IMG/VR virus record: IMGVR_UViG_3300017707_001954
Coordinates: 1-42,041 of that record
Direction: 5' to 3' (one strand)
Source: a virus
Lineage: Duplodnaviria; Caudoviricetes
DNA length: 42,041 nucleotides
A program made the translations under genes and the position numbers. The notes under the pieces are model-generated. The model saw nothing but the letters and a program-made list of their open reading frames with translations. It had not been told where the DNA came from and did not search any database. Below are positions 8,713-42,041 of this stretch, one piece after another (positions within the stretch are counted from its first letter, which is position 1; the number at the start of each line of letters is the position of its first letter).

Positions 8713-9786
8713 TCACAGAGCAGGCAGGCCGAGGCGCTTCCGCACCGCATTGATGCGGGCGGCAGGGTCCATGGTGGCAGCCACGGTGCCAGTCTGTTGG
8801 TTGTCCGGCACGCCGTCTTCGTTCGCGTCTTGGATGTAAACCTTGCGCGGCTTGCCCTGAGCATCGGGCTCATAGTAGTAGTCGCGCCCGGGATTGCCGT
8901 TTAGGTCGGCCTTGCCTTGATAAATCTTCGGCAGCTTCATCTCACCGGGAGCGCTGGCAGTCTTCATACCGGGCAGGTCCACCTGCGCATCCCCGACACG
9001 CATGGTTACGTTTCCACCCATGGCACGAGCGGCGGCGATGTCATCGGGCGTCATCTGCGGGGCGGCACGTTCAATCGGTAGGGTGCCCATGGCGCGGCCT
9101 CCGGCGAAGGGGATCACATAGCCCGTGCCCGGCACCTGCGTGGTCGTCACCTGCATGGCCTGCTCACGAGCGGTCTGCTCCTCGGTCTTCTTCATCTCCG
9201 TGGCAGCATCGGCAGCGCGGAAAGCATCCTGCTCGGCGAGGAAACTGGCATTGTTTTGGTCTGCCCAGAACGCATCATCGCGGCCCGGCATGATCGGGGC
9301 AGGCGCAGGGACGGCGGAGGTGGTGGCACCCGGCGTGCTGGCTGTGCCGAGCATCATCGGCGCAGGGGCCATCATGGTGCGGGCGGCAAAGTTTCGGTTG
9401 TTTCGACCTACCGCGTAGGCGTTCGGGCTGTTTGTGCCGACGCCTCGCGGGGCATAGCTCATGGGTCCTGCGCCGCCACGGGCAGAGAGCGGGCGCGGGT
9501 CCATGCCGCCGAGTGGGTTCACGTTGGCAGGAGCTGGGCGCAGAGCCGGTGCCAGCGGGGCAGGTGCGGGAGCACTGGCGGACACCATCGGCGCAGGCAT
9601 CCGCCCCAGAGCAGCCACACGATCAGAGGCCTGCGTGTTCAGAACGGGAGCCGCTGGACGCGCTTGGCGTGCCTGAGTCTCCACACCCTGAATGCTGGCA
9701 GGCAGACCCGTGCGCGGATTGGTGGGGAAGGCAGAGGCAAACGCACCCGGTTGGATGGCGGAGAAGGGCAGTTTCATGGCAGGCAT
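8713..9786 (-). CDS. Pro/Ala-rich putative ejection/internal virion protein
   Basis: 357 aa low-complexity ORF immediately upstream of the giant ejection protein. Confidence 0.5.
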   Translation of the reverse strand: MPAMKLPFSAIQPGAFASAFPTNPRTGLPASIQGVETQARQARPAAPVLNTQASDRVAALGRMPAPMVSASAPAPAPLAPALRPAPANVNPLGGMDPRPLSARGGAGPMSYAPRGVGTNSPNAYAVGRNNRNFAARTMMAPAPMMLGTASTPGATTSAVPAPAPIMPGRDDAFWADQNNASFLAEQDAFRAADAATEMKKTEEQTAREQAMQVTTTQVPGTGYVIPFAGGRAMGTLPIERAAPQMTPDDIAAARAMGGNVTMRVGDAQVDLPGMKTASAPGEMKLPKIYQGKADLNGNPGRDYYYEPDAQGKPRKVYIQDANEDGVPDNQQTGTVAATMDPAARINAVRKRLGLPAL

Positions 9787-9807
9787 GGCGGTCTGAAGGT
9801 AGCAGGT

Positions 9808-10422
9808 TTAACGAGTGACGCTAACAGGGAAAAGGGTGGTATATTCGTTCTCTGTGGCAGGCTCAAACTGGAAGCGCTCAGCAGCGGACGTGGGCAGGCG
9901 TAGGGCAAAGCTCCGGCGCGGCTGCGAAGGCACGGATTCAGTAAATTCACGCACGTTCAAAGTCAGGGGATATTTCCATGCGGCGAGCGCAATCAGCGCC
10001 TCCACATCCAGCCCGGCTTGCACGCGCTGCCAGTCTTCCACACCTCGGCTCATCAGCTCCAGCTCAAAGGTGCGGAGAAGGCCGGGCTCGTCCTCGCTGG
10101 AGGGTATGTTGAACATCTGCCCACGGCTGCCGCCGGTCACGGCTCCGGTGAGGCGGTTCACCGTCACCCATTCACTCCAGGGGCTCCAGTCCTCCGTGTC
10201 ACCGTTTAAGGTTCGGCGCAGGCGGGAGAAGATGATCATCGTGTAGGTCTGGGCTGTCAGCTCGGCAGGCTCGATCACCTGCGGGATGCCGTGCAGAGTC
10301 ACCTGCGTGCCCTGCACCTCCGTGTTGGCATCCACGGGCGTGAGGCTTAGCCGCTGTTTCCAGTCGGTTATGCGTGCCCGGCCGATTGCGAGCAGCTCGT
10401 CCACCTGTTCACGGGACATCAT
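9808..10422 (-). CDS. Hypothetical virion-module protein
   Basis: 204 aa ORF, coupled to the upstream ORF by an ATGA overlap. Confidence 0.6.
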   Translation of the reverse strand: MMSREQVDELLAIGRARITDWKQRLSLTPVDANTEVQGTQVTLHGIPQVIEPAELTAQTYTMIIFSRLRRTLNGDTEDWSPWSEWVTVNRLTGAVTGGSRGQMFNIPSSEDEPGLLRTFELELMSRGVEDWQRVQAGLDVEALIALAAWKYPLTLNVREFTESVPSQPRRSFALRLPTSAAERFQFEPATENEYTTLFPVSVTR

Positions 10423-26314: not shown

Positions 26315-28318
26315 TCAGTAGCCAAATTCTTCATTTTTGCGGCGTTTGAAGCGCTGGGTGTCAATGTGGCGTGGGTTGGCGGAGAGGAGGATGCGGAGGG
26401 TGTCGATGGGGTCCTTCCAGGCGCTGCTGCTGCTGCCGGCCACGGCGTAGCCGGGATAGTTTTGCAGGGCTCCGATGAGGTTGGTGCAGTGCTTGGCAAT
26501 GCGGATTTTTGGCCCGCGCCCTTGCTGGGGGTCTATCTCCATGTCTCCGGTGGCGTTGTCGATGTGGGTGTTTTCGCGGTCCCACATGAGCATGGAGTTG
26601 ATATTCTGCTCGCCGCTGAGCACGTTGTCTGCGGCGGCAGTGCCTCCGGCTTGGCGGAAGTAGAGTTTGTTGTCCTCCATCCACTCGATGATGGTTTTGC
26701 TCTCTTCCTGGCCTTCCACGACAGTGGCGGTGGATCGACTGTCGGAGATGCGGCGATCATAGACATGCAGCCAGGTGTCTTCGATGAGGCCTTGCTTGCT
26801 TTCGAGCTTCTGCCATCCGGCGAGCTTTTCTTCGATGCGGCGGATTTCGGCGGCGCGGAAGGCGTAGCCGCAGGGCCATTGCTTTTGGGCGTTGCCTTTG
26901 ATGCCGAGGCCGTTTTTGCCGCCGGACTTGGCCCACTCGCAATCCTCGCCGGTATAAAGGGCGGCACCGGGGACGTTCACGACATCGTTGGTTTGCGGAT
27001 ATTCGTGGGCGATGAGGATGTCACCCGGCCCCATCTTGCCCCAGGCCTGCCCAAGCACGAAGGCCCAGAGCTGGAACCACGCACGGCCACCGCTGGCGTT
27101 TGGATCTTGCGACATCCACCACGTCCCAAACTCGGCAGGTGGCAGCCATTGCGGCACGGGGCGGACATGCACCTGAAGGTTGAAGTTGGGGAAGGGGCTG
27201 TCCGCGGTGCCTTCGGCGATGCCGTAGCATTTCCAAAGGATTTTGGAGCGAGGGCTTTTGAGTTCAGACTTTTTCATGCCCTCCCAGTTTCCGCCGAGGG
27301 GATTCTGCCAGGCGTAGATCCACATGAAGCGACGGGTGGGCACGGCGCAGTGAACGACGCAGGGCAGGCGCTCTCCCCCGATGATGGTGCCCTTGGCATC
27401 TCGGCGCGGCAGTAGCTCTGGGTCAGCCTCGATCTCCTTCATGGTGACGGCTTTGTCCATGAACCAGCGGACGGTTTCGGTGTAGCCGTCGCGGAAGGTG
27501 TAGGTGACGAACTGCACGGCGACCATGAGCCGCCCGATGAGGTCACGCGGGAACCACATTTCAGGGTCCGCTTCTTTCTGAGCGAGCAATTCCCGCCACT
27601 TGGGCATCATCTCATGCGTCCACTCGGCGGCGGTCAGCAGTCGGTTTTCTGTGGCTTCAAGCACGTTGACTGGCACGCACTCATCGCCCCAGGAGGTGCA
27701 GGGGCGGGGGCCTTCGAGCTTGCCGATGTCTTGCGCCCAGGTTTTAAACCTGCACACGGCACCGCTGGTCACGGCGCACTCGTTGTTGGTGAAACCTCCG
27801 GCGGCATCGTAACCCATTTTTTGGTTGGCCTGCTTTTTGAGGCGGCCTGTTTCGGTCTTGTATTCGTTGGGCTGCCAGAAGCGGATGGCGGCTTCCACCA
27901 CTTCGGCGCTTTTGTCATCGTCAATGCTGAAGGTCCAGAAGGTGCGCTGGTGCTCGGGCATGTCTGGGCGGCACTGCTCCATCGCTAGCGTGTAGAAGCG
28001 AGCCAGCGATTGGGTTTTGCCGGAGCCATTGGAGCCCCCGATGCCCATGGTGACGGGCACGCCGGGATTCTCCACCCGCAGGCGGCAGGTCTCCCAAAGG
28101 ATGTCATCCCAGGAGCGGAAGAACCACCCGTGGTTAAACGGGTCCTCTGCGGCTTCTTGGATGCGAGCTGCCCGCGCCGCCACGGCAGCCAGCGCATCCT
28201 CAGCCCCGAGCGCCATCAGCTCCTCCACCGTCAAGGGTGGCAGCATTCCATGCGGCCGCTGCTCTGCTTGCAGCAGCTCGAAGGCGAGGCGTATTTCGTC
28301 AGTCATGGGGTTATTCAA
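26315..28318 (-). CDS. terL: Terminase large subunit
   Basis: Walker A GGSNGSGKT, Walker B SWGDE, nuclease-domain SQDP and C-terminal KDPIDTLR. Confidence 0.85.
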   Translation of the reverse strand: MNNPMTDEIRLAFELLQAEQRPHGMLPPLTVEELMALGAEDALAAVAARAARIQEAAEDPFNHGWFFRSWDDILWETCRLRVENPGVPVTMGIGGSNGSGKTQSLARFYTLAMEQCRPDMPEHQRTFWTFSIDDDKSAEVVEAAIRFWQPNEYKTETGRLKKQANQKMGYDAAGGFTNNECAVTSGAVCRFKTWAQDIGKLEGPRPCTSWGDECVPVNVLEATENRLLTAAEWTHEMMPKWRELLAQKEADPEMWFPRDLIGRLMVAVQFVTYTFRDGYTETVRWFMDKAVTMKEIEADPELLPRRDAKGTIIGGERLPCVVHCAVPTRRFMWIYAWQNPLGGNWEGMKKSELKSPRSKILWKCYGIAEGTADSPFPNFNLQVHVRPVPQWLPPAEFGTWWMSQDPNASGGRAWFQLWAFVLGQAWGKMGPGDILIAHEYPQTNDVVNVPGAALYTGEDCEWAKSGGKNGLGIKGNAQKQWPCGYAFRAAEIRRIEEKLAGWQKLESKQGLIEDTWLHVYDRRISDSRSTATVVEGQEESKTIIEWMEDNKLYFRQAGGTAAADNVLSGEQNINSMLMWDRENTHIDNATGDMEIDPQQGRGPKIRIAKHCTNLIGALQNYPGYAVAGSSSSAWKDPIDTLRILLSANPRHIDTQRFKRRKNEEFGY

Positions 28319-31914: not shown

Positions 31915-32191
31915 CGGTGCGTCCCTCCTTTTTTTGTTTGGCGCGGATGGACTGGGCGGCTTGTGTCAAACGGCACGCCATCTCGCCGCACTGATCCCAC
32001 AAGGCGTTTGGCTGGGAGAGCCAAGCATCGACCTCCAGAAGCAGAGATTCATAGCGCTCCAGATCCTCAGCGAACTGATAAAGGGGCCGCTGCCAAGCGG
32101 ACGGGACAAATCCCGCTTCACCGGGGCAGCCAGTTTCCTGACAATCCGCCGAGGAGGGGAGACGACATTGAGGGCAAACGAGTTTACTCAT
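31907..32191 (-). CDS. Hypothetical protein with an N-terminal Cys cluster
   Basis: MSKLVCPQC...C....C; start reassigned to ATG 32191. Confidence 0.55.
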   Translation of the reverse strand: MSKLVCPQCRLPSSADCQETGCPGEAGFVPSAWQRPLYQFAEDLERYESLLLEVDAWLSQPNALWDQCGEMACRLTQAAQSIRAKQKKEGRTDG

Positions 32192-32670
32192 GGGATTCGG
32201 TTTTTCAGTTCGGGCCCGCTCAGCGGCGTGTGTGGCTGGGGCCGCCCTTTTTTTTAGAGGGGCAGAAATCAGGGGGAAGCAGGCGCTCAAGACCTGCGGC
32301 AATGGGAACAAATTTTCACCGCACCGATGGATAGGATAGGATCGGGCACGAGCAGCGTCCGGACCCCCTCCCCCCCTGGTCAAACCAAGCTCGCCGAGCC
32401 CATCCGCCAGCGTGCATTCATGGTAGTGATGGATACAACCGTTGAAAATCAACGCATTAAAAGCACGAAACAACAGATTGATAATCCTTTGCCCGCCAAT
32501 CGTGCCCCGATTCCAGCTCGATCCAGCCCAGCCGCCGCATTGCCCACATTCTCCGCGCCCCTGAATCCATTCCAGGCCACCGCCCAGCAGGGAGCAGAGA
32601 CAATGGAAGCCCAAACTGCTCCACAGAAACGCAGCAGTCACAGAGCGCCGCTCAGATGAAACAGCAGACT

Positions 32671-32973
32671 TCACCGCTTGGAACCCTCCCCGCTAAAAAA
32701 AGAAAACGCCCCAGACTCCCGGTGCTCCAGACGCAGCGGCAGCTCATCCAGCGCCCACTCAGGCACACGCACACGGCGGCCCAACCTCTTAGTCGGCAAC
32801 AGCGGCAGCTCATCCAGCGCACACAGCTTGTAAGTCCAGTCAAAAACCGTCTTTTCCGGCACGCTCAGCCTTCTCGCCACCTCCTGCACCGTCAGCAGCA
32901 CCACAGGCCCCGCAGGCCTGCCCACACGGCGAGCCCCAGCCCTCACAGACGAAACACCTTCAGAGTCAGTCAT
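32671..32973 (-). CDS. Excisionase/Cro-like HTH_17 protein
   Basis: LLTVQEVARRLSVPEKTVFDW...RLGRRVRVP. Confidence 0.75.
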   Translation of the reverse strand: MTDSEGVSSVRAGARRVGRPAGPVVLLTVQEVARRLSVPEKTVFDWTYKLCALDELPLLPTKRLGRRVRVPEWALDELPLRLEHRESGAFSFFSGEGSKR

Positions 32974-33007
32974 AAGCGAAAAAAGAAAAAAGGGGCAAAA
33001 TCATCCA

Positions 33008-33256
33008 TCACGCCGCCAGCACCGCCGGAGCCACACAGCGGCACCGCTCAGCCTCACACAGCGCCCGGTAATCATTCCAGGCCGCCCGAGTCATCACCCA
33101 GCACGCACCGCCCTGGCCGCGTGCGCCGATGGGCAAGCGCCCATCCGGCAACGGCCAGCCAGCCACCGCTTCAAAGCCAGCCGCAAAAAAAAGAGCCTCA
33201 GCGCTCAGCTCATCCAGCCCAGCAGGGGCAGAAAAAAAAGGAGCAGGCACACTCAC
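33008..33256 (-). CDS. Hypothetical protein
   Basis: 82 aa; ATGA overlap with the upstream ORF. Confidence 0.5.
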   Translation of the reverse strand: MSVPAPFFSAPAGLDELSAEALFFAAGFEAVAGWPLPDGRLPIGARGQGGACWVMTRAAWNDYRALCEAERCRCVAPAVLAA

Positions 33257-33456
33257 AGCGCACCCCCCTCCGCAGAATCCACAGGAGCAGCAGCAGCAGC
33301 AGGAGCCAAAGCAGCCAGCCGCCGCTCACGATCCGCAGCCAGCCGCTTCTCCCACTTCAGCACCACCGCCGCCACATCGGCAGAGGGATTCAGCCGCCGA
33401 GTCTGCTGGCAGGTAGCCACCAGCACGTCAAGAACAGTCAATTCAGGGTCAGTCAT
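33253..33456 (-). CDS. Hypothetical protein, first gene of the leftward operon
   Basis: 67 aa; ends with GAGGGGG in front of the next start. Confidence 0.55.
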   Translation of the reverse strand: MTDPELTVLDVLVATCQQTRRLNPSADVAAVVLKWEKRLAADRERRLAALAPAAAAAPVDSAEGGAL

Positions 33457-33620
33457 ACAGAGCTAATTTGAAATCAGGCCAGAATTGCATGGATTAACCC
33501 ATCGCGCAACCTCGACTTGCAAACAAATTTATCTTGAAATAATACTTGCGCCGCAAGAATTAGCGCGTAATCTATCCCCGCCGCTATCACCGGCCCAAAC
33601 ATCAACACCGAATCCACATC
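33457..33620. promoter_or_regulatory. Divergent promoter region
   Basis: AT-rich gap between divergent operons; TTGCGC-16 bp-TAATCT at ~33547-33574; palindrome CTTGCGCCGCAAG. Confidence 0.55.
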
Positions 33621-34238
33621 ATGAGCACCGCCCTCACCATCCGCCCGCAGTCCGCCAAACGCCCCGACCGCAAAACCCGCAAAGAAGCCACCCCAGAGCA
33701 AAAAGAAGCCGCAGCCGCACGCCGTGCCGGCATCAAGCAGCTCTGCGCCATCGTCAAAGCCCTGCCCGTAGAAAAGCGCGTCCTCCTCGCCGCCTCCTAC
33801 GGCATCCGCAGCGCAGAGGGCCGCGAGCTCTCCCCCTTCAATCAATGCCTCCTCGTTCATCAAAACTCATCCGTTTCCATCGTGGGCGGCTTCCAGCAGT
33901 GGAAGAAACTCGGCCGCAGTGTCAAGAAAGGCGAGCGCTCCCTCGCCATCTGGGTCCCCTGCGGCAAGCAGGCCGAAAGCGCCAATGACGCCGCCGCGAA
34001 TCCCGACACCGACAACGACAAATTCTTCATCCTCGGCAGCGTCTTCGACATCACCCAGACAGAGACCGACGAGGAAAAAGCCGCCCGCGTAGCCGGTGAG
34101 ACCCTCGCCCTCCCAGCCCCAGCGCTCGCCCTGCCCTATCGCGCCGACGCCTTCGACATCGAAGCCGAGCCCATCACCGACGAGCCCGAGCCCGAGCCCG
34201 CCGCCAGCATCCAAGACGAATTCACCCTCTGCGACTAA
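33621..34238 (+). CDS. ArdC N-terminal-like (DUF1738) ssDNA-binding/anti-restriction protein
   Basis: SPFNQCLL...GFQQWKKLGRSVKKGERSLAIWVP...VFDITQT. Confidence 0.8.
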   Translation: MSTALTIRPQSAKRPDRKTRKEATPEQKEAAAARRAGIKQLCAIVKALPVEKRVLLAASYGIRSAEGRELSPFNQCLLVHQNSSVSIVGGFQQWKKLGRSVKKGERSLAIWVPCGKQAESANDAAANPDTDNDKFFILGSVFDITQTETDEEKAARVAGETLALPAPALALPYRADAFDIEAEPITDEPEPEPAASIQDEFTLCD

Positions 34239-34304
34239 ACCACCCCACCCAGCGCGGGCGGTTCCACCCCTCCCGCCTCTTCACTCTTTCCCTCCTTCCC
34301 TCTC

Positions 34305-34634
34305 ATGAACAAATCTGAAGAACTCGCCGCCTTTCACGCATTCCGCCGCAGCATGCCGCCGGCCAGCTATCTGCGCCCATGGCTCGACAGCATCGCCGAT
34401 GAAATAGAATCCAGTTTGACCAGCGATTATTTCCCGTGCGCCTCCATTCACGAAGCGCAAAAGCAGGCCGCCGCCATCCTCCAGGATGCACGAGCCCACG
34501 CCGCAGAAGTGACGCAGACAGCCAAAGACCAGGCCGCCAAAGAAACCGCCGCCGCATCCAAAGACATCAATGACGCCATGCGCCGCGCCTTGTCAGCCGT
34601 CGCCGCCGCTGAACGTGCCCTTTCCAATTACTAA
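34305..34634 (+). CDS. Hypothetical helical protein
   Basis: 109 aa with codon usage like neighbouring phage genes. Confidence 0.6.
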   Translation: MNKSEELAAFHAFRRSMPPASYLRPWLDSIADEIESSLTSDYFPCASIHEAQKQAAAILQDARAHAAEVTQTAKDQAAKETAAASKDINDAMRRALSAVAAAERALSNY

Positions 34635-34653
34635 CCCATTCCCCTTCCCCATC

Positions 34654-35625
34654 ATGAGCACCATGCAATTCCTCCGCCACAAAGTCACCGGCATCAAATA
34701 CATACGCCTCGCCAGCGGCTCCATGATCCCCGTTTCCGACCTCCCGCGCCTCGCCGGCAATGACGCCGACCTGCGCAGCATCGAGATCAAGTGCGAAACG
34801 TGCCACACCTGGCACCCCTGCCACGCCATGCACACGCACCCCACCGGCCTCCAGTGCCGCGCCTGCATCGCCACCGCAGCCGCCGCCGCCAGCCCAGAGA
34901 GCGAGCACGCCGCCGCCATGCGCAAAGCCGCCGCCCTCCTACGCCTCGCCCAGTCAGACAACCCGCACGAAGCCGCCCTCGCCGCCTCCCGCGCTCAAGA
35001 AATCATCGACCGCTACAAACTCAACCTTGCCGCCCTCGATAGCGCCCCCAGCGAGGAACCCGCCGAAGAAATCCGCAACTTCAAAGACGATCCCCTCGAC
35101 ACCGGCGGCCTGTGGAAAGCCCTCCTGGCTCAAGCCGTCGCCAACGTCAACCAATGCAAAGTTTACACCTCCGGCGGCAATGTCCACATCATCGGCCGCC
35201 CGTCTGACGTGGCTATTGTCCGCCCCTTCCACGCCTACCTCGCCGGAGAGATCGAGCGCCTAGCCTCCCGCCACTGCCGCGGCAACTCCCGCACCTATTG
35301 GAACAACTTCCGACTTGGAGCCGTGGAAACCATCAAGCAGCGCCTCCAGGCCTCCCTCGCCTCCACCGTCGAAACAGTAAAGGCCGAAGCCCTCGCCGCC
35401 GGTAACAGCGCCGCCCTCGTCACCGTCACAAACTCGCTGGCCATCATCGAAAAGCGCAAACAAGAAGTCGAAGCCTGGGCACGGCAAAACATGAACCTTC
35501 GCAGCCGCACCGCCCGCAGCAGCTACAACAACGCCGGCCGCGAAGCAGGCCGCGCCGCCGGCCATAGCGTCAACCTCCACCGCTCCGCCGGAGCCCTCAA
35601 CAGCACCCGCCGCGCCCTCGCCTAG
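34654..35625 (+). CDS. DUF2786-containing protein with an N-terminal Cys/His cluster
   Basis: KAAALLRLAQSDNPHEAALAASRAQEIIDRYKL; WNNFRLGAV; AGREAGRAAG. Confidence 0.8.
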   Translation: MSTMQFLRHKVTGIKYIRLASGSMIPVSDLPRLAGNDADLRSIEIKCETCHTWHPCHAMHTHPTGLQCRACIATAAAAASPESEHAAAMRKAAALLRLAQSDNPHEAALAASRAQEIIDRYKLNLAALDSAPSEEPAEEIRNFKDDPLDTGGLWKALLAQAVANVNQCKVYTSGGNVHIIGRPSDVAIVRPFHAYLAGEIERLASRHCRGNSRTYWNNFRLGAVETIKQRLQASLASTVETVKAEALAAGNSAALVTVTNSLAIIEKRKQEVEAWARQNMNLRSRTARSSYNNAGREAGRAAGHSVNLHRSAGALNSTRRALA

Positions 35626-35627
35626 CC

Positions 35628-36224
35628 ATGCACTCCCCAGAAATCACCGCCGACTTCCTCCACCGCCTCGCCCTCCTCCTGGATGGCGAGGCGGTCACCC
35701 GTCCCGGCTGCAGTGACGAGCGCCTCCCCGTCATCCGCCTGCATTCACCCCGCGTCCTGCTCTCCATCTCAAATTCATGGGACGCCCGCCCCAAGTGGCG
35801 CGCCTCCGTCATGGACTGGGAAGGAAAGCACATCCACGGCAGCCCCAGCGCCAACTTCACCAGCACCCGCCCCATCGAAGAAATTGCCGCCGATCTCCGC
35901 CGCCGCGTCCTAGATCCCGCCCGCGCCAAGCTCATCCAGCACGCCACCAGCGCCGCCGCCGCCGCCCAAAAGCACCAGCAGGCCGCCCACCGCCTCGCCG
36001 AGCTAGAAACCATCCTCGGCCCCACAAAGCCCTATCACAACGGATACGCCAACCTTCCCGGTTTCCGCATCCCACACGAGCACCACCTGCAAGACCGTGA
36101 CGGCCCCTGGCCATCCTTCCAAGCAGAAATCACCCTTCACAGCTTTGCCGCCCTCAAAATGATCGCCGCCATCATCGCCGAAGATCACCGCTTGAACAAT
36201 CAAGCGCGTGAATGCAGTGAATAA
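35628..36224 (+). CDS. Hypothetical protein
   Basis: 198 aa, starts 2 nt after the previous stop. Confidence 0.6.
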   Translation: MHSPEITADFLHRLALLLDGEAVTRPGCSDERLPVIRLHSPRVLLSISNSWDARPKWRASVMDWEGKHIHGSPSANFTSTRPIEEIAADLRRRVLDPARAKLIQHATSAAAAAQKHQQAAHRLAELETILGPTKPYHNGYANLPGFRIPHEHHLQDRDGPWPSFQAEITLHSFAALKMIAAIIAEDHRLNNQARECSE

Positions 36225-36294
36225 CAGCCCCCCCAAACAAAAGCGCCCGGCGGGCTATCACCTCCGCCGGGCCATGCACCGAATCCATCAGCCC

Positions 36295-36537
36295 ATGAGC
36301 CAGCCACAGCCAGCCACCCCCAGCATCCCCCAGCTCACCGCCGCCGGCAAGCCCAGAAAACGCGCCCCCGGCGCCGGAGCCCCCAAAAAGCACCGTCAGC
36401 ATCACCTCTCCCGAGTTGATGCCACCACCCTCCACACACTCCAAGCCCTCGCCACCGCCTGGCACTGCACCTTAGCAGATGCCATCGCCCGCGCCGCCAT
36501 CCAAGCCCACAAAACCCTCAAAAAGCCGCCAGCATAG
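36295..36537 (+). CDS. RHH/CopG-like DNA-binding protein
   Basis: RKRAPGAGAPKK...RVDATTLHTLQALATAWHCTLADAIARA. Confidence 0.55.
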   Translation: MSQPQPATPSIPQLTAAGKPRKRAPGAGAPKKHRQHHLSRVDATTLHTLQALATAWHCTLADAIARAAIQAHKTLKKPPA

Positions 36538-36649
36538 CCACAGCCCCCCATATCACCCTTCCCCACCGAAAACCACCCCCAAAACCGCCGCACCCCGGCG
36601 GTTTTCTCATATCCACACCCCAGCCAAACCCGCCTACCAACAAATAAAA

Positions 36650-36665
36650 CTTGATTTCAATCAAG
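36650..36665 (+). promoter_or_regulatory. Palindromic operator overlapping a probable -35 box upstream of the repressor-like gene
   Basis: CTTGAT-TTCA-ATCAAG, with TTGATT as -35 in an AT-rich gap. Confidence 0.5.
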
Positions 36666-36690
36666 ACTAACTTTACACATCCACCACCCC

Positions 36691-37134
36691 ATGAGCTACC
36701 TCGCCGTCCAAGTCACCGAATACCTTCGCACCTGCCCACATTCCGCCCGGGAGATCGAAGAGCGCGCCAAACTGCCCCGCATGACCCTCGGCACCATCCA
36801 GCGTGACGGCCATCCCCGGCCCGACCGCTTCGGCCAGCTCCTGAAAGCCGTCGATGACCACACTGCCCGCCAATGGCTCGAAGCCTACCTGCTCGACGAC
36901 TGCCCCGAAGCCTGGCTTCCCCGCGTCAAAATCCTCATCGAAGGCCTGCAACATATACAGACCACAGACACCAGCCACCTCGCCGAGCCCCACAAATCCT
37001 ACGGCCCCCCAGCCGACCCCATCGCCGCCACCGCCCGCGCCCTCCACCGCCTCCAGTCTGCCATGGCCAAAGACCGCGAGCTCAGCACCTGGTTCCTCCA
37101 AACCGTCACCCTCATCCTCGGCCCCGAAGAATGA
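36691..37134 (+). CDS. XRE/CI-like HTH repressor candidate
   Basis: SAREIEERAKLPRMTLGTIQRDGHPRPDRFGQLLKAV; its stop overlaps the distal boundary of the cassette array. Confidence 0.6.
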   Translation: MSYLAVQVTEYLRTCPHSAREIEERAKLPRMTLGTIQRDGHPRPDRFGQLLKAVDDHTARQWLEAYLLDDCPEAWLPRVKILIEGLQHIQTTDTSHLAEPHKSYGPPADPIAATARALHRLQSAMAKDRELSTWFLQTVTLILGPEE

Positions 37135-37232
37135 ACGATCAAACTGTGCCGACCGAGGGCGGCGATAAAAAGCTATGAAATCACAAACGACGACACCGCC
37201 GACCGAAGGTTGGCACCAGTGGCTGGTTCGGC
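37130..37232 (-). repeat. attC of cassette 6 (distal)
   Basis: Minus strand: R'' GCCGAAC, 5 nt, L'' ACTGGTGC (extra G) ... L' GCACAGT, 6 nt, R' GTTCATT. Confidence 0.85.
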
Positions 37233-37462
37233 TTTGGAAGGCCGTGACGCATTCGCACACATGGCAGAGGATCAATGATGCCTCAATCATGGATGTAAAT
37301 GACACATATCCGCCAACTCATATCGACTACATCAGCCCGAAACGCTGGTGTCCTGAATGCGGGCGGATGGAATGGTATGTAGGGCCTGAAGTCTGCGGCG
37401 GAGATCGAGCACGATGGGTGCCGTTCTCGCCATGGACTGACGATGATGAGCCGAACCGCTAG
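37175..37462 (+). CDS. Cassette 6 ORF, hypothetical with H-x-H...CPEC metal-binding motif
   Basis: Starts in its own attC loop; ends EPNR* inside the next attC. Confidence 0.65.
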   Translation: MKSQTTTPPTEGWHQWLVRLWKAVTHSHTWQRINDASIMDVNDTYPPTHIDYISPKRWCPECGRMEWYVGPEVCGGDRARWVPFSPWTDDDEPNR

Positions 37463-37543
37463 GGCTATGCCGCCCGCAACTGAATCGGACCATGGAAAGT
37501 AACAGCACAGCTATTGAAGGTCGTCATCAGCCCCTTGTTCGGC
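37450..37543 (-). repeat. attC of cassette 5
   Basis: Minus strand: GCCGAAC-AAGGG-GCTGATGA ... GCATAGC-CCTAGCG-GTTCGGC. Confidence 0.8.
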
Positions 37544-37845
37544 CTCTTCGGGCGAAGGACATGGCCGCATTCTTCAACGCCGACCCAACACCGGAAACGC
37601 TGGTCAAGATCGCCTGCGCCATGGACGCCGAGACATCGGAAATCCTCAAATCAAGGGGTATCCAGAAAGACGCCTCGTTCTTATCGCTCCTGAAAGAGCA
37701 GGACAACAAGTGGCAGGCTTTCGCCCGTCGCTGCCCAGACGTGAACCCGATGGCATTCCGGCTAGTCATGCAAAAACTCCACCCAACCACTGCGGCCTTT
37801 GCTTGGCCGAACGACAGAATCCACCCACATGATGGGCGTAAATAG
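37492..37845 (+). CDS. Cassette 5 ORF, hypothetical
   Basis: Starts in the attC loop; ends WPNDRIHPHDGRK* inside the next attC. Confidence 0.7.
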   Translation: MESNSTAIEGRHQPLVRPLRAKDMAAFFNADPTPETLVKIACAMDAETSEILKSRGIQKDASFLSLLKEQDNKWQAFARRCPDVNPMAFRLVMQKLHPTTAAFAWPNDRIHPHDGRK

Positions 37846-37905
37846 ACATCCGCTTTCACGCAAGACACTGCCGCCCATCATGTTGGGTGCGATGCCTTGT
37901 TCAGC
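37806..37905 (-). repeat. attC of cassette 4
   Basis: Minus strand: GCTGAAC-AAGGC-ATCGCACC-CAACATGATGGGCG ... CGCCCATCATGTG-GGTGGAT-TCTGTC-GTTCGGC; two extrahelical bases. Confidence 0.9.
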
Positions 37906-38026
37906 TTTGACCGCAGCAGAGGACGCTCTGCCGATGGCCTCTGGGCCGGAACTGCGGGCAGGAGTGGCAGACGTAAACCCACCCCGCTACCTCTCGGCGT
38001 AACAACAGCGGAGGAAACTTTCGACC

Positions 38027-38275
38027 ATGAACAACATACACTGCATCCCAGTCGGAAACGGCGAGCCAATACATGAATGTCACACGCTCTGCTGGTGCCA
38101 TCCGGTGAAGGACACCGAATCCGTAAATCTCTATGCCCACAACGCGAAAGACTGCCGCGAGAAGTGGGAGCGCCAAGGACTCGAAATGCCATCTGAGTCC
38201 TTGTGGGTGACTGTGGAAGAGAAGCTGAACGAATCAAGTGATGGCGCGGCGGGCTGCGGCCCGAACTCGCCTTGA
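38027..38275 (+). CDS. Cassette 4 ORF, Cys/His-rich small protein
   Basis: GGAGG upstream; H-x-x-P...H....CWCHP...H motif; stop inside the next attC. Confidence 0.7.
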   Translation: MNNIHCIPVGNGEPIHECHTLCWCHPVKDTESVNLYAHNAKDCREKWERQGLEMPSESLWVTVEEKLNESSDGAAGCGPNSP

Positions 38276-38312
38276 GAGCTTATCGCCGTCGGCCATCCAC
38301 GTCTTGTTCGTG
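38224..38312 (-). repeat. attC of cassette 3
   Basis: Minus strand: CACGAAC-AAGAC-GTGGATGG-CCGACGGCG ... CGCCGCG-CCATCAC-TTGATTC-GTTCAGC. Confidence 0.85.
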
Positions 38313-38344
38313 GGCGGCGGACTGGCACGAAAGACACCGAAACC

Positions 38345-38581
38345 ATGATCACAATCCCCGAATCTTACATGCTGCTGAACTGCGGAAAGTGCGGTCACGA
38401 GGCTGACTTCTTCGACTTCTGTCGCACGCCGATCACCGGCGAACTTCCTAGCGGAACCCACCAATGCCCTAAGTGCCGGAAGGCATGGAAAATGGAAAAG
38501 TATGAGGAAGGCCAATGGCTCGCCACTGGCCAATACATCCCACCAGGCCGCCGTGCTGTCTCAATCCCCACCATCCTCTAA
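38345..38581 (+). CDS. Cassette 3 ORF a, zinc-ribbon protein
   Basis: CGKC ... CPKC. Confidence 0.7.
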   Translation: MITIPESYMLLNCGKCGHEADFFDFCRTPITGELPSGTHQCPKCRKAWKMEKYEEGQWLATGQYIPPGRRAVSIPTIL

Positions 38582-38583
38582 TC

Positions 38584-38880
38584 ATGTCCGATCTACCTGA
38601 AACACTCTGGGGGCCGCTGTGGCGGCACATGCACAACGAGCACGGCCTGATCCTGCTCGATGACGAATGCAACCAAATCGCGCAAGCCGCCGATGAAGCA
38701 AGGATGGCCGCTGGAACGCCAGTGGCAATGATCCTGATCAACGCGCTGCGGAGCCTGAGCAAAAAGGAGCTGGTGACGCTGGGCAAGGCAATCGCGGATC
38801 GCTGCGGACACAGGCTCGAACCAGCAATTTGTCCCACGAACGCCGCTGGTGAGGCGACGGCGAGCGATACGCGCCGATGA
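38584..38880 (+). CDS. Cassette 3 ORF b, hypothetical
   Basis: ATG 2 nt after the previous stop (MSDLPETLWGPLW); ends PTNAAGEATASDTRR* inside the next attC. Confidence 0.65.
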   Translation: MSDLPETLWGPLWRHMHNEHGLILLDDECNQIAQAADEARMAAGTPVAMILINALRSLSKKELVTLGKAIADRCGHRLEPAICPTNAAGEATASDTRR

Positions 38881-38927
38881 CATGATAGACCAACTTCGAG
38901 CCGTTGCCTCCAGCAGCATGGTTCAGC
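38835..38927 (-). repeat. attC of cassette 2
   Basis: Minus strand: GCTGAAC-CATGCT-GCTGGAGG-CAACGGC ... GCCGTCG-CCTCACC-AGCGGC-GTTCGTG. Confidence 0.85.
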
Positions 38928-38945
38928 CCGAAACCTCCCACGACT

Positions 38946-39215
38946 ATGACCATACAGAGCCTCACGCAAGATCACGAAGCCGCCGCCAAAGCACTCATGG
39001 ACGGCATCAAAGAGCTGATACCTGTCGGCACAAAACTGCGAATCCTCATGCGGGGGCGCGGTGGCAAAACCATTGACGCTGAAGTCATCTCCCACGGCCA
39101 CGCATGGAGCATCAAGTATCCTCACGAGGTGCATGTGAAGAATCTCAAAACAGGCAAGACTCGCACGATAGATGTCCATCCCGAGTTCGGACACCGCTAC
39201 GAGGTCATTGGCTGA
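38946..39215 (+). CDS. Cassette 2 ORF, small SH3-like beta protein (hypothetical)
   Basis: MTIQSLTQD...PVGTKLRI...VHVKNLKTGKTRTI; TGA lies inside the GCTGAAC core. Confidence 0.65.
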   Translation: MTIQSLTQDHEAAAKALMDGIKELIPVGTKLRILMRGRGGKTIDAEVISHGHAWSIKYPHEVHVKNLKTGKTRTIDVHPEFGHRYEVIG

Positions 39216-39272
39216 ACGCTTGAGATCAGCCACTGAGCCTAAGCGAAGTTGGACTGCATCTCATTGTTCTCT
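39211..39272 (-). repeat. attC of cassette 1 (62 bp, minimal size)
   Basis: Minus strand: AGAGAAC-AAT-GAGATGCAGTCCAACT ... AGTGGCTGATCTC-AAGC-GTTCAGC. Confidence 0.85.
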
Positions 39273-39302
39273 GACGTTGGTAAAAAATCTCCAAATAAGG
39301 AC

Positions 39303-39331
39303 TTGCACAATGTAGCTTAATGCTACATAAT
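39303..39331 (+). promoter_or_regulatory. Cassette-internal sigma70 promoter with an overlapping palindromic operator
   Basis: TTGCAC-17 bp-CATAAT; ATGTAGC-TTAAT-GCTACAT (39310-39328); GGGGA then ATG 39340. Confidence 0.75.
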
Positions 39332-39339
39332 GGGGACAT

Positions 39340-39567
39340 ATGAAACCACCATTACTACAAATCAAAATCGGGAGTCAGGCACGCATCACAGCCATTAGTC
39401 TTCAACATGCCCGAGCAATTTGGGAGCAGTATCGCGCCGACAAAGATCTTGGCGCAAGCAATGCACCCAAAGTTCTTCTCTATCTGGATGGAGTGAAGAT
39501 CGGACACATGAGCTACAATGGCCGTATCTGGGACTTGGACAATGTAGAAATGGAGGCAGCAGCGTGA
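39340..39567 (+). CDS. Cassette 1 ORF a, hypothetical (HMSYNGRIW motif)
   Basis: Own promoter and RBS; coupled to the next gene by a GTGA overlap. Confidence 0.75.
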   Translation: MKPPLLQIKIGSQARITAISLQHARAIWEQYRADKDLGASNAPKVLLYLDGVKIGHMSYNGRIWDLDNVEMEAAA

Positions 39568-40235
39568 GAGTCCTTATCGGCTATGAATCATCAGGCATGA
39601 CTCGCGAAGCCTTTAGGCGGCGCGGGCATGATGCGTGGTCGTGCGATATACAGCCCGCTGACGATAACTCTTCGTATCACTATCAATGTGACATTCGCGA
39701 TGTCGTCCACATGGGGTGGGACCTAGCCATCTTCCACCCATCATGCACTTACCTTACGTGTTCCGCAGAGTGGGCTTATGGTGACGGTCCATATCACATG
39801 AACCTAAAGATAGGAACGCTTGTGGGCAAAGCCAGACGGCAAGCCCGCGAAGCGGCGATAGCCGAAGTAAAATGGCTGTGGGCGCTGCCGATTGAGCGCA
39901 TAGTGATCGAAAACCCAAAAGGCGCTTTATCAACGCGATGGAGGAAGCCGACACAAATAATTCAGCCTCACGAGTATGGTGACGACGCCAGCAAAGAAAC
40001 GCACATCTGGAGCCGGGGATGCTCTCTTATGACCCCGACGTTGCATGTAGCTCCTCGCATCGTGGAGCATCCAAAAGGATCAGGAAAACTGGTCAAGCGC
40101 TGGGCCAATCAAACCGACTCAGGACAGAATAAACTTACGCCATCACAAACCCGATGGAAAGAGCGAAGCAAGACCTATCCCGGTATTGCTGAAGCCCTCG
40201 CATCGCAACTTCTCCAAGATTTTCGCCTCGTATGA
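39564..40235 (+). CDS. Cassette 1 ORF b, short phage-type C5-cytosine DNA methyltransferase-like protein
   Basis: MRVLIGYESSG (motif I variant), AWSCD, FHPSCT (PC-motif variant), IENP. GTG start after GGAGG. Confidence 0.75.
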   Translation: MRVLIGYESSGMTREAFRRRGHDAWSCDIQPADDNSSYHYQCDIRDVVHMGWDLAIFHPSCTYLTCSAEWAYGDGPYHMNLKIGTLVGKARRQAREAAIAEVKWLWALPIERIVIENPKGALSTRWRKPTQIIQPHEYGDDASKETHIWSRGCSLMTPTLHVAPRIVEHPKGSGKLVKRWANQTDSGQNKLTPSQTRWKERSKTYPGIAEALASQLLQDFRLV

Positions 40236-40447
40236 CGCCAGATCAATACAAAGCCACCCGTGAGCGCCTCGGCACACAAGCCGAGGTCGCTCTCATGCTC
40301 GGCGTGAATCGCGTGACTGTCGCGAAGCGGGAGAACGGCACCATGACCATCACAAACGAGGCAGTCCTAGCGATTCAGTCGCTCCGAAGGCCGAGACGTA
40401 AACGCAAGTCAGAGAACACTGATTATCCCGACCAGCTTTCCAGATAG
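40232..40447 (+). CDS. Cassette 1 ORF c, XRE HTH protein whose C-terminus crosses attI
   Basis: MTPDQYKATRERLGTQAEVALMLGVNRVTVAKRENG. Confidence 0.85.
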   Translation: MTPDQYKATRERLGTQAEVALMLGVNRVTVAKRENGTMTITNEAVLAIQSLRRPRRKRKSENTDYPDQLSR

Positions 40448-40450
40448 CCA
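40411..40450 (-). other. attI site (core GTTCTCT on the minus strand; crossover between 40416 and 40417)
   Basis: GTCAGAGAAC (40408-40417) is the exact reverse complement of GTTCTCTGAC (39266-39275) of the first attC. No attC hairpin follows, and it lies ~60 bp upstream of intI. Confidence 0.8.
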
Positions 40451-40475
40451 CCCCAAAACCAGAAACACCACCGCC

Positions 40476-41498
40476 ATGACACTCCCCGAAATGGTTGAAC
40501 AAGTCCGCATCGTCTGCCGAATGCGCCGACTTTCCCGGCACACCGAGGATTGTTACAGCGGCTGGATCACACGCTTTGCCGCGCACGTCCGCACCTGTCC
40601 GGAACTCAGCCGCGACGAGCGCGTGCGCACCTACCTCGAAAAGCTCGCCCCGCGCACCTCCGCAAGCACCCAAAACCAAGCCCTGAACGCCATCGTCTTC
40701 CTGTATCGCGATGTCATCAAAGAACCCTTGGGTGACCTTGGCAAATGGGCACGGGCCAAACGCCCCGCCCGCCTGCCCACCTGGCTATCACCGCAGGAAA
40801 TGCAGCGCCTGCTTGATCAAATGCCGCCCGGCACCCGCATGATGGCCGAACTCGCTTATGGCTCGGGCCTGCGCGTGGCCGAGCTGCTCGCCCTCCGCAT
40901 CAAAGACATCGACCTTGATGCCCATCTCGTCACCGTCAGAGGCGGCAAGGGTGACAAAGACCGCATCACCGTCCTACCCCGCAGCCTCATGCATCGGCTT
41001 CACGCCCATCTCAACCGCATCCGCGTCCTCTATGATGGCGACCGCGCCGCCAGCGCCCCGCCCATCTACCTCCCCGATGGCCTCGAGCGCAAGTTTCCCA
41101 ATGCCGGCCGCGAGTGGGCATGGTTTTGGCTATGGCCAGCCGCCAGCCACAGCACCGATCCCCGCACCGGCATCCACCGCCGCCATCACGTCCACGAAGA
41201 CACGCTCGGCAAAGCCCTCAAACTTGCCACCCGCAAAGCCGGACTGCACAAACGAGTCACCGCCCACACCCTCCGGCACAGCTTTGCCACCAATCTCCTC
41301 GCCAGTGGTGCCAGCATCACCCAAGTGCAGGAACTCCTCGGCCATAACAGCGTCGAAACCACCCAGGTCTATCTTCACTGCGTCCCCCAGTTCGCCGCCA
41401 CCATCACCAGCCCGCTTGATGCTCTGCCAGCAGCGTCAAACATCCTTCCCTTTCACGTCCCATCCTCACAGTCCCAGCCCCTTGCCCGCACCGCATGA
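40476..41498 (+). CDS. intI: Integron integrase (IntI family)
   Basis: SASTQNQALNAIVFLYR, YGSGLRVAE, GGKGDKDR, HTLRHSFAT, LLGH..V.TT.VY, plus the integron-specific insertion IYLPDGLERKFPNAGREWAWFWLWP...DPRTG..RRHH. Confidence 0.95.
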   Translation: MTLPEMVEQVRIVCRMRRLSRHTEDCYSGWITRFAAHVRTCPELSRDERVRTYLEKLAPRTSASTQNQALNAIVFLYRDVIKEPLGDLGKWARAKRPARLPTWLSPQEMQRLLDQMPPGTRMMAELAYGSGLRVAELLALRIKDIDLDAHLVTVRGGKGDKDRITVLPRSLMHRLHAHLNRIRVLYDGDRAASAPPIYLPDGLERKFPNAGREWAWFWLWPAASHSTDPRTGIHRRHHVHEDTLGKALKLATRKAGLHKRVTAHTLRHSFATNLLASGASITQVQELLGHNSVETTQVYLHCVPQFAATITSPLDALPAASNILPFHVPSSQSQPLARTA

Positions 41499-42041
41499 GC
41501 ACCACCCCAGCCACCATCATCACCCCGCTTGGCCTTGAAGTGCCCACACCGCCCGCCCATGAGTGGCGCGAGCACACAACCGAGCGCTGGCGCGACCGTG
41601 ACCCCGAGAGCCACGCATTCGCCCTCCACCTCGTCCGCCAGCTCGGCATCACTAATAAAACCCAAATCACCGAGCTAGTCGATCAGCACCGCGCCGCCCG
41701 CCAGCTCCCCGGCATCTCCCGCAACAGCATCATCGCCCTCTTCAACGACACCACCGAGTTCAAGCCCGGCGAAATAGACGAAATCATCCGCCGCCGCTCC
41801 AGTCTCCTCACCGCCGACACCCTCGACAAAATCGAAACCCTTCTCGACAAAGCCAAAGCCGCCAAAGACCTCGGCGCCGCCGCCATGGCCCTCACCGCCG
41901 TTTACAACGTCAAACAAATCTCCAGCGGCGGCGCCACAAGGATCAGCGGCCAAACCAGCGACAGCCAAAAAGCCCGCACCTTCGACGAACTTCGCGCCCG
42001 CGCTCGCGCCCTACTCAGCACCCCCCAGCCGCCCGAACTTC
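41495..42041 (+). CDS. Partial ORF (182+ aa, runs off the end), possible terminase small subunit-like protein
   Basis: ATGA-coupled to the intI stop, with no stop before the window end. The helical AKDLGAAAMALTAVYNVKQISSGGATRI segment resembles TerS-type proteins. Confidence 0.5.
   Translation, partial: MSTTPATIITPLGLEVPTPPAHEWREHTTERWRDRDPESHAFALHLVRQLGITNKTQITELVDQHRAARQLPGISRNSIIALFNDTTEFKPGEIDEIIRRRSSLLTADTLDKIETLLDKAKAAKDLGAAAMALTAVYNVKQISSGGATRISGQTSDSQKARTFDELRARARALLSTPQPPEL

Follow-up and report, generated by a model that had tools for sequence, protein, structure and literature searches.

The window, i.e., the whole analyzed stretch of DNA (42,041 nt, an IMG/VR virus record), represents a 42-kb freshwater phage genome carrying an integron with all its components present, namely, an integrase (IntI), an attI site, and six cassettes. 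Phage-type genes on the record encode an endolysin, SSB, DnaB, a second tyrosine recombinase, and a terminase-like protein. The features of the region are as follows (window coordinates).

36691–37134, plus strand: ORF for an HTH, repressor-like protein (147 aa), a fixed phage gene left of the array
37130–37232, plus strand: attC of cassette 6, crossover between 37135 and 37136; includes the start codon (37175) of its gene
37136–37455: cassette 6 (320 bp), gene 37175–37462 (plus), stop inside the next attC
37450–37543, plus strand: attC of cassette 5 (hairpin template/finder)
37456–37811: cassette 5 (356 bp), gene 37492–37845 (plus), stop inside the next attC
37806–37905, plus strand: attC of cassette 4 (hairpin template/finder, folding)
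37812–38229: cassette 4 (418 bp), gene 38027–38275 (plus), phrog_2864
38224–38312, plus strand: attC of cassette 3 (hairpin template/finder)
38230–38840: cassette 3 (611 bp), genes 38345–38581 (weak zinc-ribbon match) and 38584–38880 (stop in the next attC), both plus
38835–38927, plus strand: attC of cassette 2 (hairpin template/finder)
38841–39216: cassette 2 (376 bp), gene 38946–39215 (plus)
39211–39272, plus strand: attC of cassette 1, short, 62 nt (hairpin template/finder)
39217–40416: cassette 1 (1200 bp), with a stretch resembling a promoter, which includes an inverted repeat (39310–39328), and three genes: a 75-aa gene (39340–39567), a DNA methyltransferase (39564–40235; phrog_757, E 2.7e-50), and an HTH gene (40232–40447) with its stop inside attI
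40411–40450, minus strand: attI, crossover between G and TT at 40417 and 40416 of the minus strand
40476–41498, plus strand: IntI (340 aa, TIGR02249), intact, on the strand of the cassette genes
41495–42041, plus strand: ORF for a likely small terminase subunit, running over the record end

Residues R133, H264, R267, H290, and Y299 of IntI, which we take to be the catalytic ones, are invariant (10 of 10). The enzyme matches TIGR02249 with 344 bits (cut-off 265) and aligns end to end, IntI-specific insertion included, with IntI4 (PDB 2a3v, E 3e-65). The intI gene starts 59 bp past attI, i.e., the array has the neighbouring intI that a CALIN lacks. The stop codon of intI overlaps the start of the terminase-subunit gene (ATGA). 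In the related locus L028, the homologue of the latter is flanked by intI and by a homologue of the terminase-like gene, and the array lies between ssb and intI-terS-terL, one strand being used throughout. In two other related loci (L002 and L020), the ends are joined. As for the 147-aa HTH protein, a Pfam search gave no match, and its ESM Atlas neighbours (0.94) with HTH_3/HTH_31 serve as a lead only. The TGA stop of its gene is part of the outermost core box, and a homologue in locus L021 terminates at the same box.

attC sites, core boxes and array polarity

The attC sites were located with a finder whose score draws on hairpin structure and on the sequence of the arms; it ignores bases outside AAC/GTT and uses our own template rather than IntegronFinder. 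It recovers all six sites of the window, which were included in the training alignment of its profile. The first hairpin version had missed or mis-bounded two of the six and the first template had missed two; the later version served for the clade catalogue. A covariance model without base pairs found five of the six, all from its training set, and its use was therefore limited to spotting further arrays. Generic repeat finding missed the array, attC sites not being sequence repeats, and free folding could not distinguish the two strands of the sites. In each of the six hairpins, R and L boxes are separated by an unpaired spacer, and the arm opposite AAC contains a bulged base; C is the first base to bulge.

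When a circular cassette integrates, IntI joins its attC, as a folded bottom strand, to attI, and this joining separates the two core boxes to opposite ends of the cassette. The initial annotation had pointed to the resulting pairing, in which the GTT box of each attC is complementary to the box at the far end of the same cassette. At the coordinates it gave, all six pairs are exact reverse complements; box by box, the run is 10 nt at 39266, 8 nt at 38921, 9 nt at 38306, 9 nt at 37899, 8 nt at 37537, and 8 nt at 37226. Boxes within one hairpin mostly do not match, as it had also noted (4-nt match in five of six; 7 nt at hairpin 37450–37543). Among the 5040 assignments of seven AAC ends to six GTT boxes, four give six matches of at least 7 nt, and the summed run of 52 is reached solely by the real assignment. 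Across 19 related loci, a cross-cassette run of at least 7 nt occurs in 62 of 69 cassettes (duplicates included) and a within-hairpin run of that length in 3 of 69, whereas 10,000 shuffles averaged 5.2 and never exceeded 15. The six box pairs are thus beyond chance. Box pairing by itself is a textbook mark of integron cassettes and was already known; complementarity extending 9–11 nt is described for most cassettes (Bouvier 2009, PMC2727003).

The same annotation derived the polarity of the array from this pairing. The minus strand is indeed the top strand, but the pairing, being symmetric, does not fix this, since a plus-strand array with a crossover between G and TT would pair equally. The polarity follows instead from the bulged base, the array ends, and the variant breakpoints. 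The bulged base lies on the plus-strand GTT arm, and the bottom-strand template fits the plus strand better, at six of six sites. The leftmost hairpin is complete, and the rightmost AAC (40415–40417) has no hairpin; in 13 aligned loci its right side is conserved and its left side variable. The proposed location of attI thus holds, with the joint at 40416/40417 in a hairpin-free site flanked by conserved sequence. As intI points away from the array and the plus strand is the bottom strand, the site geometry is canonical.

Natural variants agree with a crossover between AA and C. In 13 pairs of shared cassettes, identity is lost 0–3 bases from AAC at 18 of 26 ends; the remaining eight have the same neighbour in both copies. 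The shared cassettes carry their hairpin on the left, identical cassettes are found at different ranks, and arrays vary between phages at the same platform. Further variants were read from assembled contigs of several runs, with short sides of 24–31 nt (19 plus 7 shared in X6). In run X4, cassette 6 is swapped at 37135/37454 for 279 other letters, and a bridge 38230–40415 (depth 4.8; flanks 16–18) represents an exact loss of cassettes 1–3. A second 38230–40415 bridge in this run has a depth of 9.6, its intervening content not being readable from the contigs; two forms coexist at attI within one run. Run X5 shows the same exact 38230/40415 joint, and cassette 5 is precisely absent in one short contig of X6. 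Runs X3 and X7 gave no joint bearing on cassette boundaries, X1 may be the run from which the window derives, and runs X8–X24, whose shares are small, do not enter this evidence. Indel boundaries away from the position between GAA and C had been named in advance as evidence against cassette integration; variants and shared cassettes break at AAC, so this check was passed, and the reading of the units as genuine integron cassettes is supported.

A joint at 39331/40245 lies away from any core box; it represents variation inside cassette 1 and is not counted against the model. Exact IMG/VR searches with the two excision products predicted by the initial annotation, namely, the junction of the cassette-1 circle and that of the empty array, returned no matches. 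The same search with attI and the upstream HTH gene returned a twin contig alone.

Orientation and reading frame of the cassette genes

The unusual part of the locus, overlooked in the initial annotation, is the antisense, frame-locked cargo. The cassette genes of the window lie on the strand of intI, i.e., the bottom strand, antisense to the cassette, and not on the canonical top strand. A search of the literature for an antisense, frame-locked cassette layout found no description of one.

The orientation was assessed by frame, composition, and homology, since a longest-ORF strand test proved uninformative (43 plus versus 32 minus, ties scored minus). PHROGs matches among 56 clade cassettes fall on the intI strand in 14 and on the opposite strand in one; for 62 of the 93 cassettes of other viral contigs, the respective numbers are 21 and 0. 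A single composition-based pipeline called 133 of 149 viral cassettes antisense (47/56 of the clade and 86/93 of other viral contigs), whereas for cellular genomes and metagenome contigs the identical pipeline favoured the canonical strand, in 47 of 56 and 24 of 30 cassettes, respectively. It disagrees in 9 of the 56 clade cassettes, and a minus majority is seen at 2 of the 19 clade loci. The cellular loci were canonical in 21 of 21 cases.

The crossover AAC serves as an in-frame Asn codon in five of the six window cassettes and in 56 of 64 non-redundant cassettes across related phages; the other two frames are open in 17 and 15, and no frame is open at the junction in six. Reading on in the AAC frame, a stop is met inside attC in 62/64 cassettes, versus 33 and 25 for the other frames. 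This stop is ATGA in 25/64, and 21 of these open a gene into the cassette. An in-frame stop also precedes intI at 21 of 21 attI sites examined, and attI provides the stop for the first cassette. Within the window, the stop of the last gene is supplied by the next attC or attI in five of six cassettes, cassette 2 alone having its own (TGA inside the core box). One protein should therefore have different tails in different arrays. Accordingly, 12 of 14 homologues of the cassette-4 protein retain the Asn and then diverge into unrelated tails, one of them attI-type; among cassette-5 homologues, the Asn is absent in two of five.

Stops of this kind are also found within attC in 37 of 56 cellular cassettes and in the canonical array of M16-3; this part of the pattern may therefore be a by-product of the attC sequence reused by the phage. 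The ATGA overlaps are enriched in the clade (21/56, versus 5/56 and 0/30 in the control sets).

Expression, origin and relation to known integrons

The site layout is the usual one and the cargo genes are turned round; they are therefore likely to be transcribed together with the phage genes, starting at the array end distant from intI and proceeding toward it. We hold this reading to be probable, the co-transcription itself and the activity of IntI being inferred. A promoter and terminator scan, which performed at chance level (3 found versus 2.4 expected), gave no sigma-70 match on the minus strand of 32000–42041, where a Pc driving the array from near attI would lie.

Under the proposed mechanism, the phage's own IntI would insert cassettes and remain active. 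Cassettes would be retained if their genes run in the direction in which the phage is transcribed, because the array appears to sit inside a phage transcription unit. The attC could act as a translational connector, its left arm terminating the preceding gene in the AAC frame, and its loop in many cases providing the start of its own gene via the ATGA overlap. Any cassette order would then be readable, with changes restricted to a tail of 2–24 residues. A newly inserted cassette would occupy the final position of the transcript, beside intI, which is the reverse of a Pc gradient. The cargo likely serves counter-defence, as DNA methyltransferases are the commonest named cargo genes; 42 of 56 cassettes have no PHROGs match, so this reading rests on seven methyltransferases among the matches.

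Other explanations differ in which part of this arrangement they change. An inverted-integrase integron of the Treponema type would have plus as its top strand, genes in normal sense, a crossover between G and TT, and intI alone flipped. The symmetric box pairing would suit it equally well, genes and intI do lie on one strand, and such integrons are described (PMC4889954); nevertheless, the bulge and template data at all six sites point the other way, as do the hairpin-free rightmost unit, at whose AAC the attI-like conserved sequence begins, and the breaks at AAC in run variants and in shared cassettes with a left hairpin. In the window, the top strand is minus and intI plus; the variant boundaries refute the inverted-integrase layout, and its probability is close to nil. 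It is also very improbable that a piece of a host chromosomal integron was picked up as a passenger without phage-specific logic, as in Qi et al. 2023, where the phage integrons described are captured host pieces (PMC9892861). The nearest chromosomal IntIs belong to Verrucomicrobia and the C bulge is common to both, which would suit a passenger; yet the IntI clade (identity of at least 61%, then a gap down to at most 51%) was found in viral contigs, in a single short contig from a metagenome, and in a MAG contig that carries phage-type genes, the genome scan covering 18 of 64 parts of the collection. The different arrays at one platform and the phage-like, antisense cargo, set against canonical cellular loci and the canonical published M16-3, likewise argue against it. 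A cultured member was sought in 50,697 phage records and none was found (nine IntI matches at E ≤ 1e-40, best 44% identity); virus Rctr41k has an IntI-like gene, and attC was absent by our own template.

Greater weight, although still on the unlikely side, is given to real antisense cassettes that are moved by a host IntI or are relics, with the frame rule no more than a filter that purges insertions losing a stop or disrupting the operon, and the connector unselected. The commonness of in-frame attC stops in canonical arrays and the lack of excision products in IMG/VR would be consistent with this. In addition, an antisense gene in a Verrucomicrobia chromosomal array is 48% like one from a phage cassette; phage and chromosomal pools may therefore mix. 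Arguing the other way are an IntI intact and conserved across the clade, the coexistence of two attI forms in one run, the enriched ATGA overlaps, and identical cassettes at different ranks.

In phage-borne integrons of several IntI lineages, the antisense direction thus prevails, accompanied by the frame rule at the crossover. Should the expression model be correct, phages would possess a gene-shuffling platform for small accessory and anti-restriction genes, and variable C-terminal tails on small phage proteins would be explained. A broader proposal, put forward tentatively and with the balance somewhat against it, is that phages run their own integrons: several domesticated IntI lineages would carry inverted, frame-locked cassettes as plug-in libraries of genes within phage operons, rich in anti-restriction methyltransferases. 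Such cassettes, which have their start in attC and lack a stop, would arise when IntI cuts a phage gene at an in-frame AAC close to its 3' end, rather than by attC being added behind a finished message. Phage-run integrons would then mirror bacterial anti-phage cassette banks. How integron cassettes are made is, to our knowledge, an open question, and cassettes without their own stop codon constrain models of their formation.

With classical integrons as described for class 1 and the Vibrio superintegron (PMC5027507, PMC2727003, PMC8876359), the locus shares the IntI family, the divergent intI/array geometry, the hairpin bulge opposite AAC, the crossover between AA and C, and 8–10 nt of cross-cassette complementarity. 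Unlike in these descriptions, the phage genes are antisense, attC stands ahead of the gene and often holds its start, the crossover falls inside coding sequence, and the first bulged base is C, where G is usual. Near the phage intI, no match to two LexA-type motifs known to us was found, and these may not be the motif of the host. Antisense gene orientation has been described as preventing Pc expression (PMC5027507).

The integrons and CALINs that Qi et al. 2023 (PMC9892861) described from phages likewise combine integron parts with DNA methyltransferase cargo. The three complete integrons described there are a Vibrio chromosomal capture, class 1 integrons in P1, and the inactive Shewanella prophage M16-3, whereas here a phage-resident clade carries variable antisense cargo (a comparison of gene direction confined to the complete integrons). 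All 14 genes that separate the repressor from intI in M16-3 use the canonical strand, and the annotation includes a LexA box. A frame running across the crossover, with the stop taken from incoming DNA and coupling to the next gene, is described for ORF-11 of attI1 and short ORFs in attC (PMC8876359); ORF-11 is a short top-strand leader peptide, while here the cargo gene itself, on the bottom strand, is read through most junctions. Synthetic attC sites within coding sequence (Nivina 2020, PMC7439510) can encode peptide and recombine; those were engineered in the laboratory, and here the arrangement is natural and systematic. Finally, the Treponema integrons as described (PMC4889954) also have intI on the strand of the cargo genes, but there intI is flipped relative to attC, whereas in the phage intI and attC are regular and the genes are flipped.

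Core-box pairing, array polarity and cassette boundaries

According to the initial annotation, the GTT core box at the right end of each attC site is complementary to the AAC box at the far end of the same cassette, and in five of six hairpins the two boxes of the same hairpin do not match. Both observations were borne out: the six pairs lie at the coordinates proposed for them and form exact complementary runs of 8–10 nt (6/6), and the match within hairpins is 4 nt in 5/6 and 7 nt in the remaining one. Among 5040 possible box assignments in the window, the real one alone reaches the summed run of 52. In 19 loci with 69 cassettes, the cross-cassette pairing was found in 62/69 cassettes vs. 3/69 within hairpins (shuffle control: mean 5.2, maximum 15 in 10,000). 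Two of the seven misses, in the related loci L031 and L040, look like intervals hiding an undetected attC, and in L031 such a site did turn up in a separate search. Complementarity of 9–11 nt across most cassettes is known for integrons from the accessible text of PMC2727003. The annotation is correct as written, and the cross-cassette pairing it describes is ordinary integron anatomy.

It was also proposed that the pairing fixes the polarity of the array. The minus-strand polarity itself stands, but the pairing cannot serve as its proof, because it is symmetric. The polarity is decided by the hairpin bulge, the hairpin-less right end, the ends of shared cassettes and the variants in sequencing runs: the top strand is the minus strand. 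In all six window hairpins, a bulged C is located on the GTT-carrying plus-strand arm; a bulged base marks the attC bottom strand (PMC5027507, accessible text). The structure template fits better on the plus than on the minus strand at 6/6 window attC sites; the overall figure of 64/64 is biased, since those sites had been picked using the plus template. At the rightmost AAC, where attI lies, there is no hairpin, and the sequence that follows is conserved across 13 aligned loci.

As for indel boundaries away from AAC, named earlier as what would be contrary evidence, both shared cassettes and run variants break at AAC. In 13 pairs of shared cassettes, identity is lost 0–3 bases from AAC at 18/26 ends, and the other eight have the same neighbour on both sides of the comparison. 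The same cassette can occupy different ranks; one that comes first in L005, for example, is fourth in L023. In addition, the array of L097, a Verrucomicrobiaceae MAG contig, contains an identical 636-bp cassette twice, first and fifth (7227–7862, 9276–9911), as expected for re-insertion at attI.

Assembled contigs of seven public sequencing runs were compared with the window, in which cassettes are numbered from 1, adjoining attI, to 6. In run X4, 37136–37453 is swapped for 279 other letters, and 130 other letters replace 37814–37953, a stretch comprising the cassette-4 attC and leader. Contigs of X4 end at 38230 and restart at 40415; the gap, with flanks at depth 16–18, is spanned by one bridge with exact loss of cassettes 1–3 (depth 4.8) and by another (depth 9.6) whose intervening content is not known. 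Run X5 contains the same exact loss joint, and run X6 one contig without exactly cassette 5. Because of their short sides (19–31 nt) and contig origin, these joints show presence, not rates.

Cargo strand and reading frame

Since the top strand is minus, all cargo genes that can be recognised run antisense to their cassettes. Among the IntI relatives of the window (the clade), PHROGs matches were found on the intI strand in 14/56 cassettes vs. 1/56 on the other strand, the latter overlapping a plus-strand methyltransferase. DNA methyltransferases account for 7/14 of the intI-strand matches; further clade matches are HTH regulators, an RNA ligase, a PAPS-reductase-like protein and a primase domain.

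A frame was considered open when, counted back from the junction, it ran for at least 120 nt or through the entire body. The frame reading AAC as a codon is open in 56/64 non-redundant cassettes, the other two frames in 17 and 15; no frame is open at the junction in 6/64. In the window, the AAC frame is open in cassettes 1, 3, 4, 5 and 6; in cassette 2, as in the HTH gene upstream of the array, a TGA stop lies inside the core box. A stop in the AAC frame is present in 62/64 attC sites, compared with 33 and 25 sites for the remaining frames; ATGA accounts for 25 of these 62, and 21 of the 25 open a gene into the cassette. An in-frame stop precedes intI in all attI sites (21/21). The stop codon of open-ended cassette genes comes from the neighbour, the next attC or attI, so that a single gene ends differently in different arrays. 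In an independent protein search, Asn is retained in 12/14 homologues of the cassette-4 protein, with divergence immediately beyond it; one homologue ends with an attI-type tail. For cassette 5, 3/5 homologues keep Asn and then diverge, and 2/5 have no Asn.

All groups were analyzed with the same pipeline, using the structure template and the pairing rule, with strand called from amino-acid composition. Scans covered 18/64 parts of the genome collection and 3/64 of the metagenome collection.

Table. Cassettes in the clade and control groups
Group; loci with cassettes; antisense calls; AAC frame open; ATGA count
Clade; 19/22; 47/56; 49/56; 21
Other viral; 27/52; 86/93; 64/93; 17
Cellular genomes; 21/79; 9/56; 16/56; 5
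Metagenome contigs; 9/79; 6/30; 10/30; 0

Counted over loci, which are not independent, antisense calls prevail in 42/46 clade and viral loci (two ties, two against) vs. 0/21 cellular genomes. Counting against the frame-locked reading, an in-frame attC stop is also found in 37/56 cellular-genome cassettes, so that this feature is partly older than the phage use. In the 62 longer of the 93 other viral cassettes, PHROGs matches are on the intI strand in 21/62 and on the other strand in 0/62. Terminase, capsid or tail genes were identified in 7/27 other viral loci (62 of 100 long ORFs tested); viral assignment of the remaining loci is that of IMG/VR.

In a midpoint-rooted FastTree of 131 IntIs, which shows grouping rather than monophyly, the clade that holds the window IntI has 28 members (support 0.985), namely viral contigs plus L097 and L177. 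The clade adjoins two chromosomal Verrucomicrobia IntIs (0.951), one with a canonical array. Other viral IntIs bearing antisense arrays are placed elsewhere, a pattern suggestive of several origins but no proof of them.

Some separate observations concern other arrays. In a Verrucomicrobiae MAG, a canonical chromosomal array begins with a cassette (L109 9385–9711) whose antisense gene is 48% like that of a phage cassette (L040 c2); phage and host arrays may thus exchange cassettes. In L234 (1893–2927), an array that is otherwise canonical and apparently cellular includes four short cassettes scored as antisense, which may be gene-less. Related phages also contain attC clusters apart from intI, most of which lie on the strand opposite to it:
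L029 57–1214 and 13582–14063
L036 134–490
L037 581–1671

Phage setting and proposed expression of the array

The window spans an entire IMG/VR virus record of 42,041 bases. The gene at 40476–41498 scores 344 bits vs. the integron-integrase cut-off of 265 and aligns over its full length with IntI4. The window also encodes an endolysin, SSB, DnaB, a terminase-like protein (ESM Atlas 0.98) and the following:
33621–34238, plus strand: ArdC anti-restriction N-terminal-domain gene, upstream of the array on the same strand
441–1862, minus strand: second, divergent tyrosine recombinase (phrog_1, E 8.9e-6)

The latter probably serves as the integrase of the phage itself, suggesting a temperate lifestyle. 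The two window ends are joined in a twin contig (L020 8516–8586); within its first ten bases (1–10; other end 42032–42041), the window departs from the joined sequence at two positions, through either an error at a read end or a scar of an attachment site. The best-matching public runs are freshwater metagenomes, among which X1 may be where the window comes from. In the parts of the genome collection scanned, the closest match to the IntI is L097 (74% identity), which carries phage-type genes and an array of the same kind; judging by this match, the host is probably a verrucomicrobium.

The window order is HTH gene, array, intI and terS-like gene, the last two sharing an ATGA overlap. In L028, the order on one strand is dnaB, ssb, array, intI, terS, terL, and the ssb stop makes up the last core box. 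In the window, a long distance separates the terminase-like large gene (26315–28318, minus) from the terS-like gene (41495–42041, plus), and their strands are opposite; since in L028 they are adjacent, directly after intI, the intI–terS block has moved or been inverted.

In integrons generally, recombination takes place between the attC bottom strand and attI. Beyond the parts, boundaries, gene strand and frame rule, which are directly observed, we infer from gene order that the array would sit inside a phage transcription unit. Co-oriented, translation-coupled cargo would leave the operon readable whatever the cassette order, and new cassettes would land last in it. A promoter ahead of the HTH gene is suggested by two features, although the promoter scan is at chance level:
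36587–36602: hairpin with T run
36650–36665: inverted repeat

Within cassette 1 lies a further promoter-like stretch, which includes an inverted repeat (39310–39328), is also conserved in L005 and L026 and could drive intI when the cassette is in first position. This cassette represents a family in which the attC end and the HTH gene are fixed, the promoter-like stretch recurs and the middle varies:
window 39217–40416
L005 104–619
L026 5435–6212

The middle, a methyltransferase in the window and other genes in L005 and L026, changes at sites other than core boxes. Cassette 1 looks like a self-regulated unit.

Comparison with known integrons

The system belongs to integrons by its integrase, attI, attC and unit mobility, but its array departs from the canonical integron expression layout. 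Qi et al. 2023 reported 3 complete integrons among 10,705 phages (PMC9892861); their M16-3 array is canonical, unlike that of the window. The accessible text of that paper does not mention antisense cargo, and gene direction in its CALIN figures may bear on novelty. No description of an antisense frame-locked layout was found in a literature search lying mostly outside subscription journals, including the accessible parts of PMC13366799, PMC13323075 and bioRxiv 10.64898/2026.09.14.751636. What the box pairing leads to is an integron resident in a phage, whose cassettes are inverted and frame-locked and which varies naturally at attI. ORF-11 across attI1 and short ORFs within attC (PMC8876359) are precedents in part, as are synthetic coding attC sites (PMC7439510), as far as the accessible text of both sources goes.
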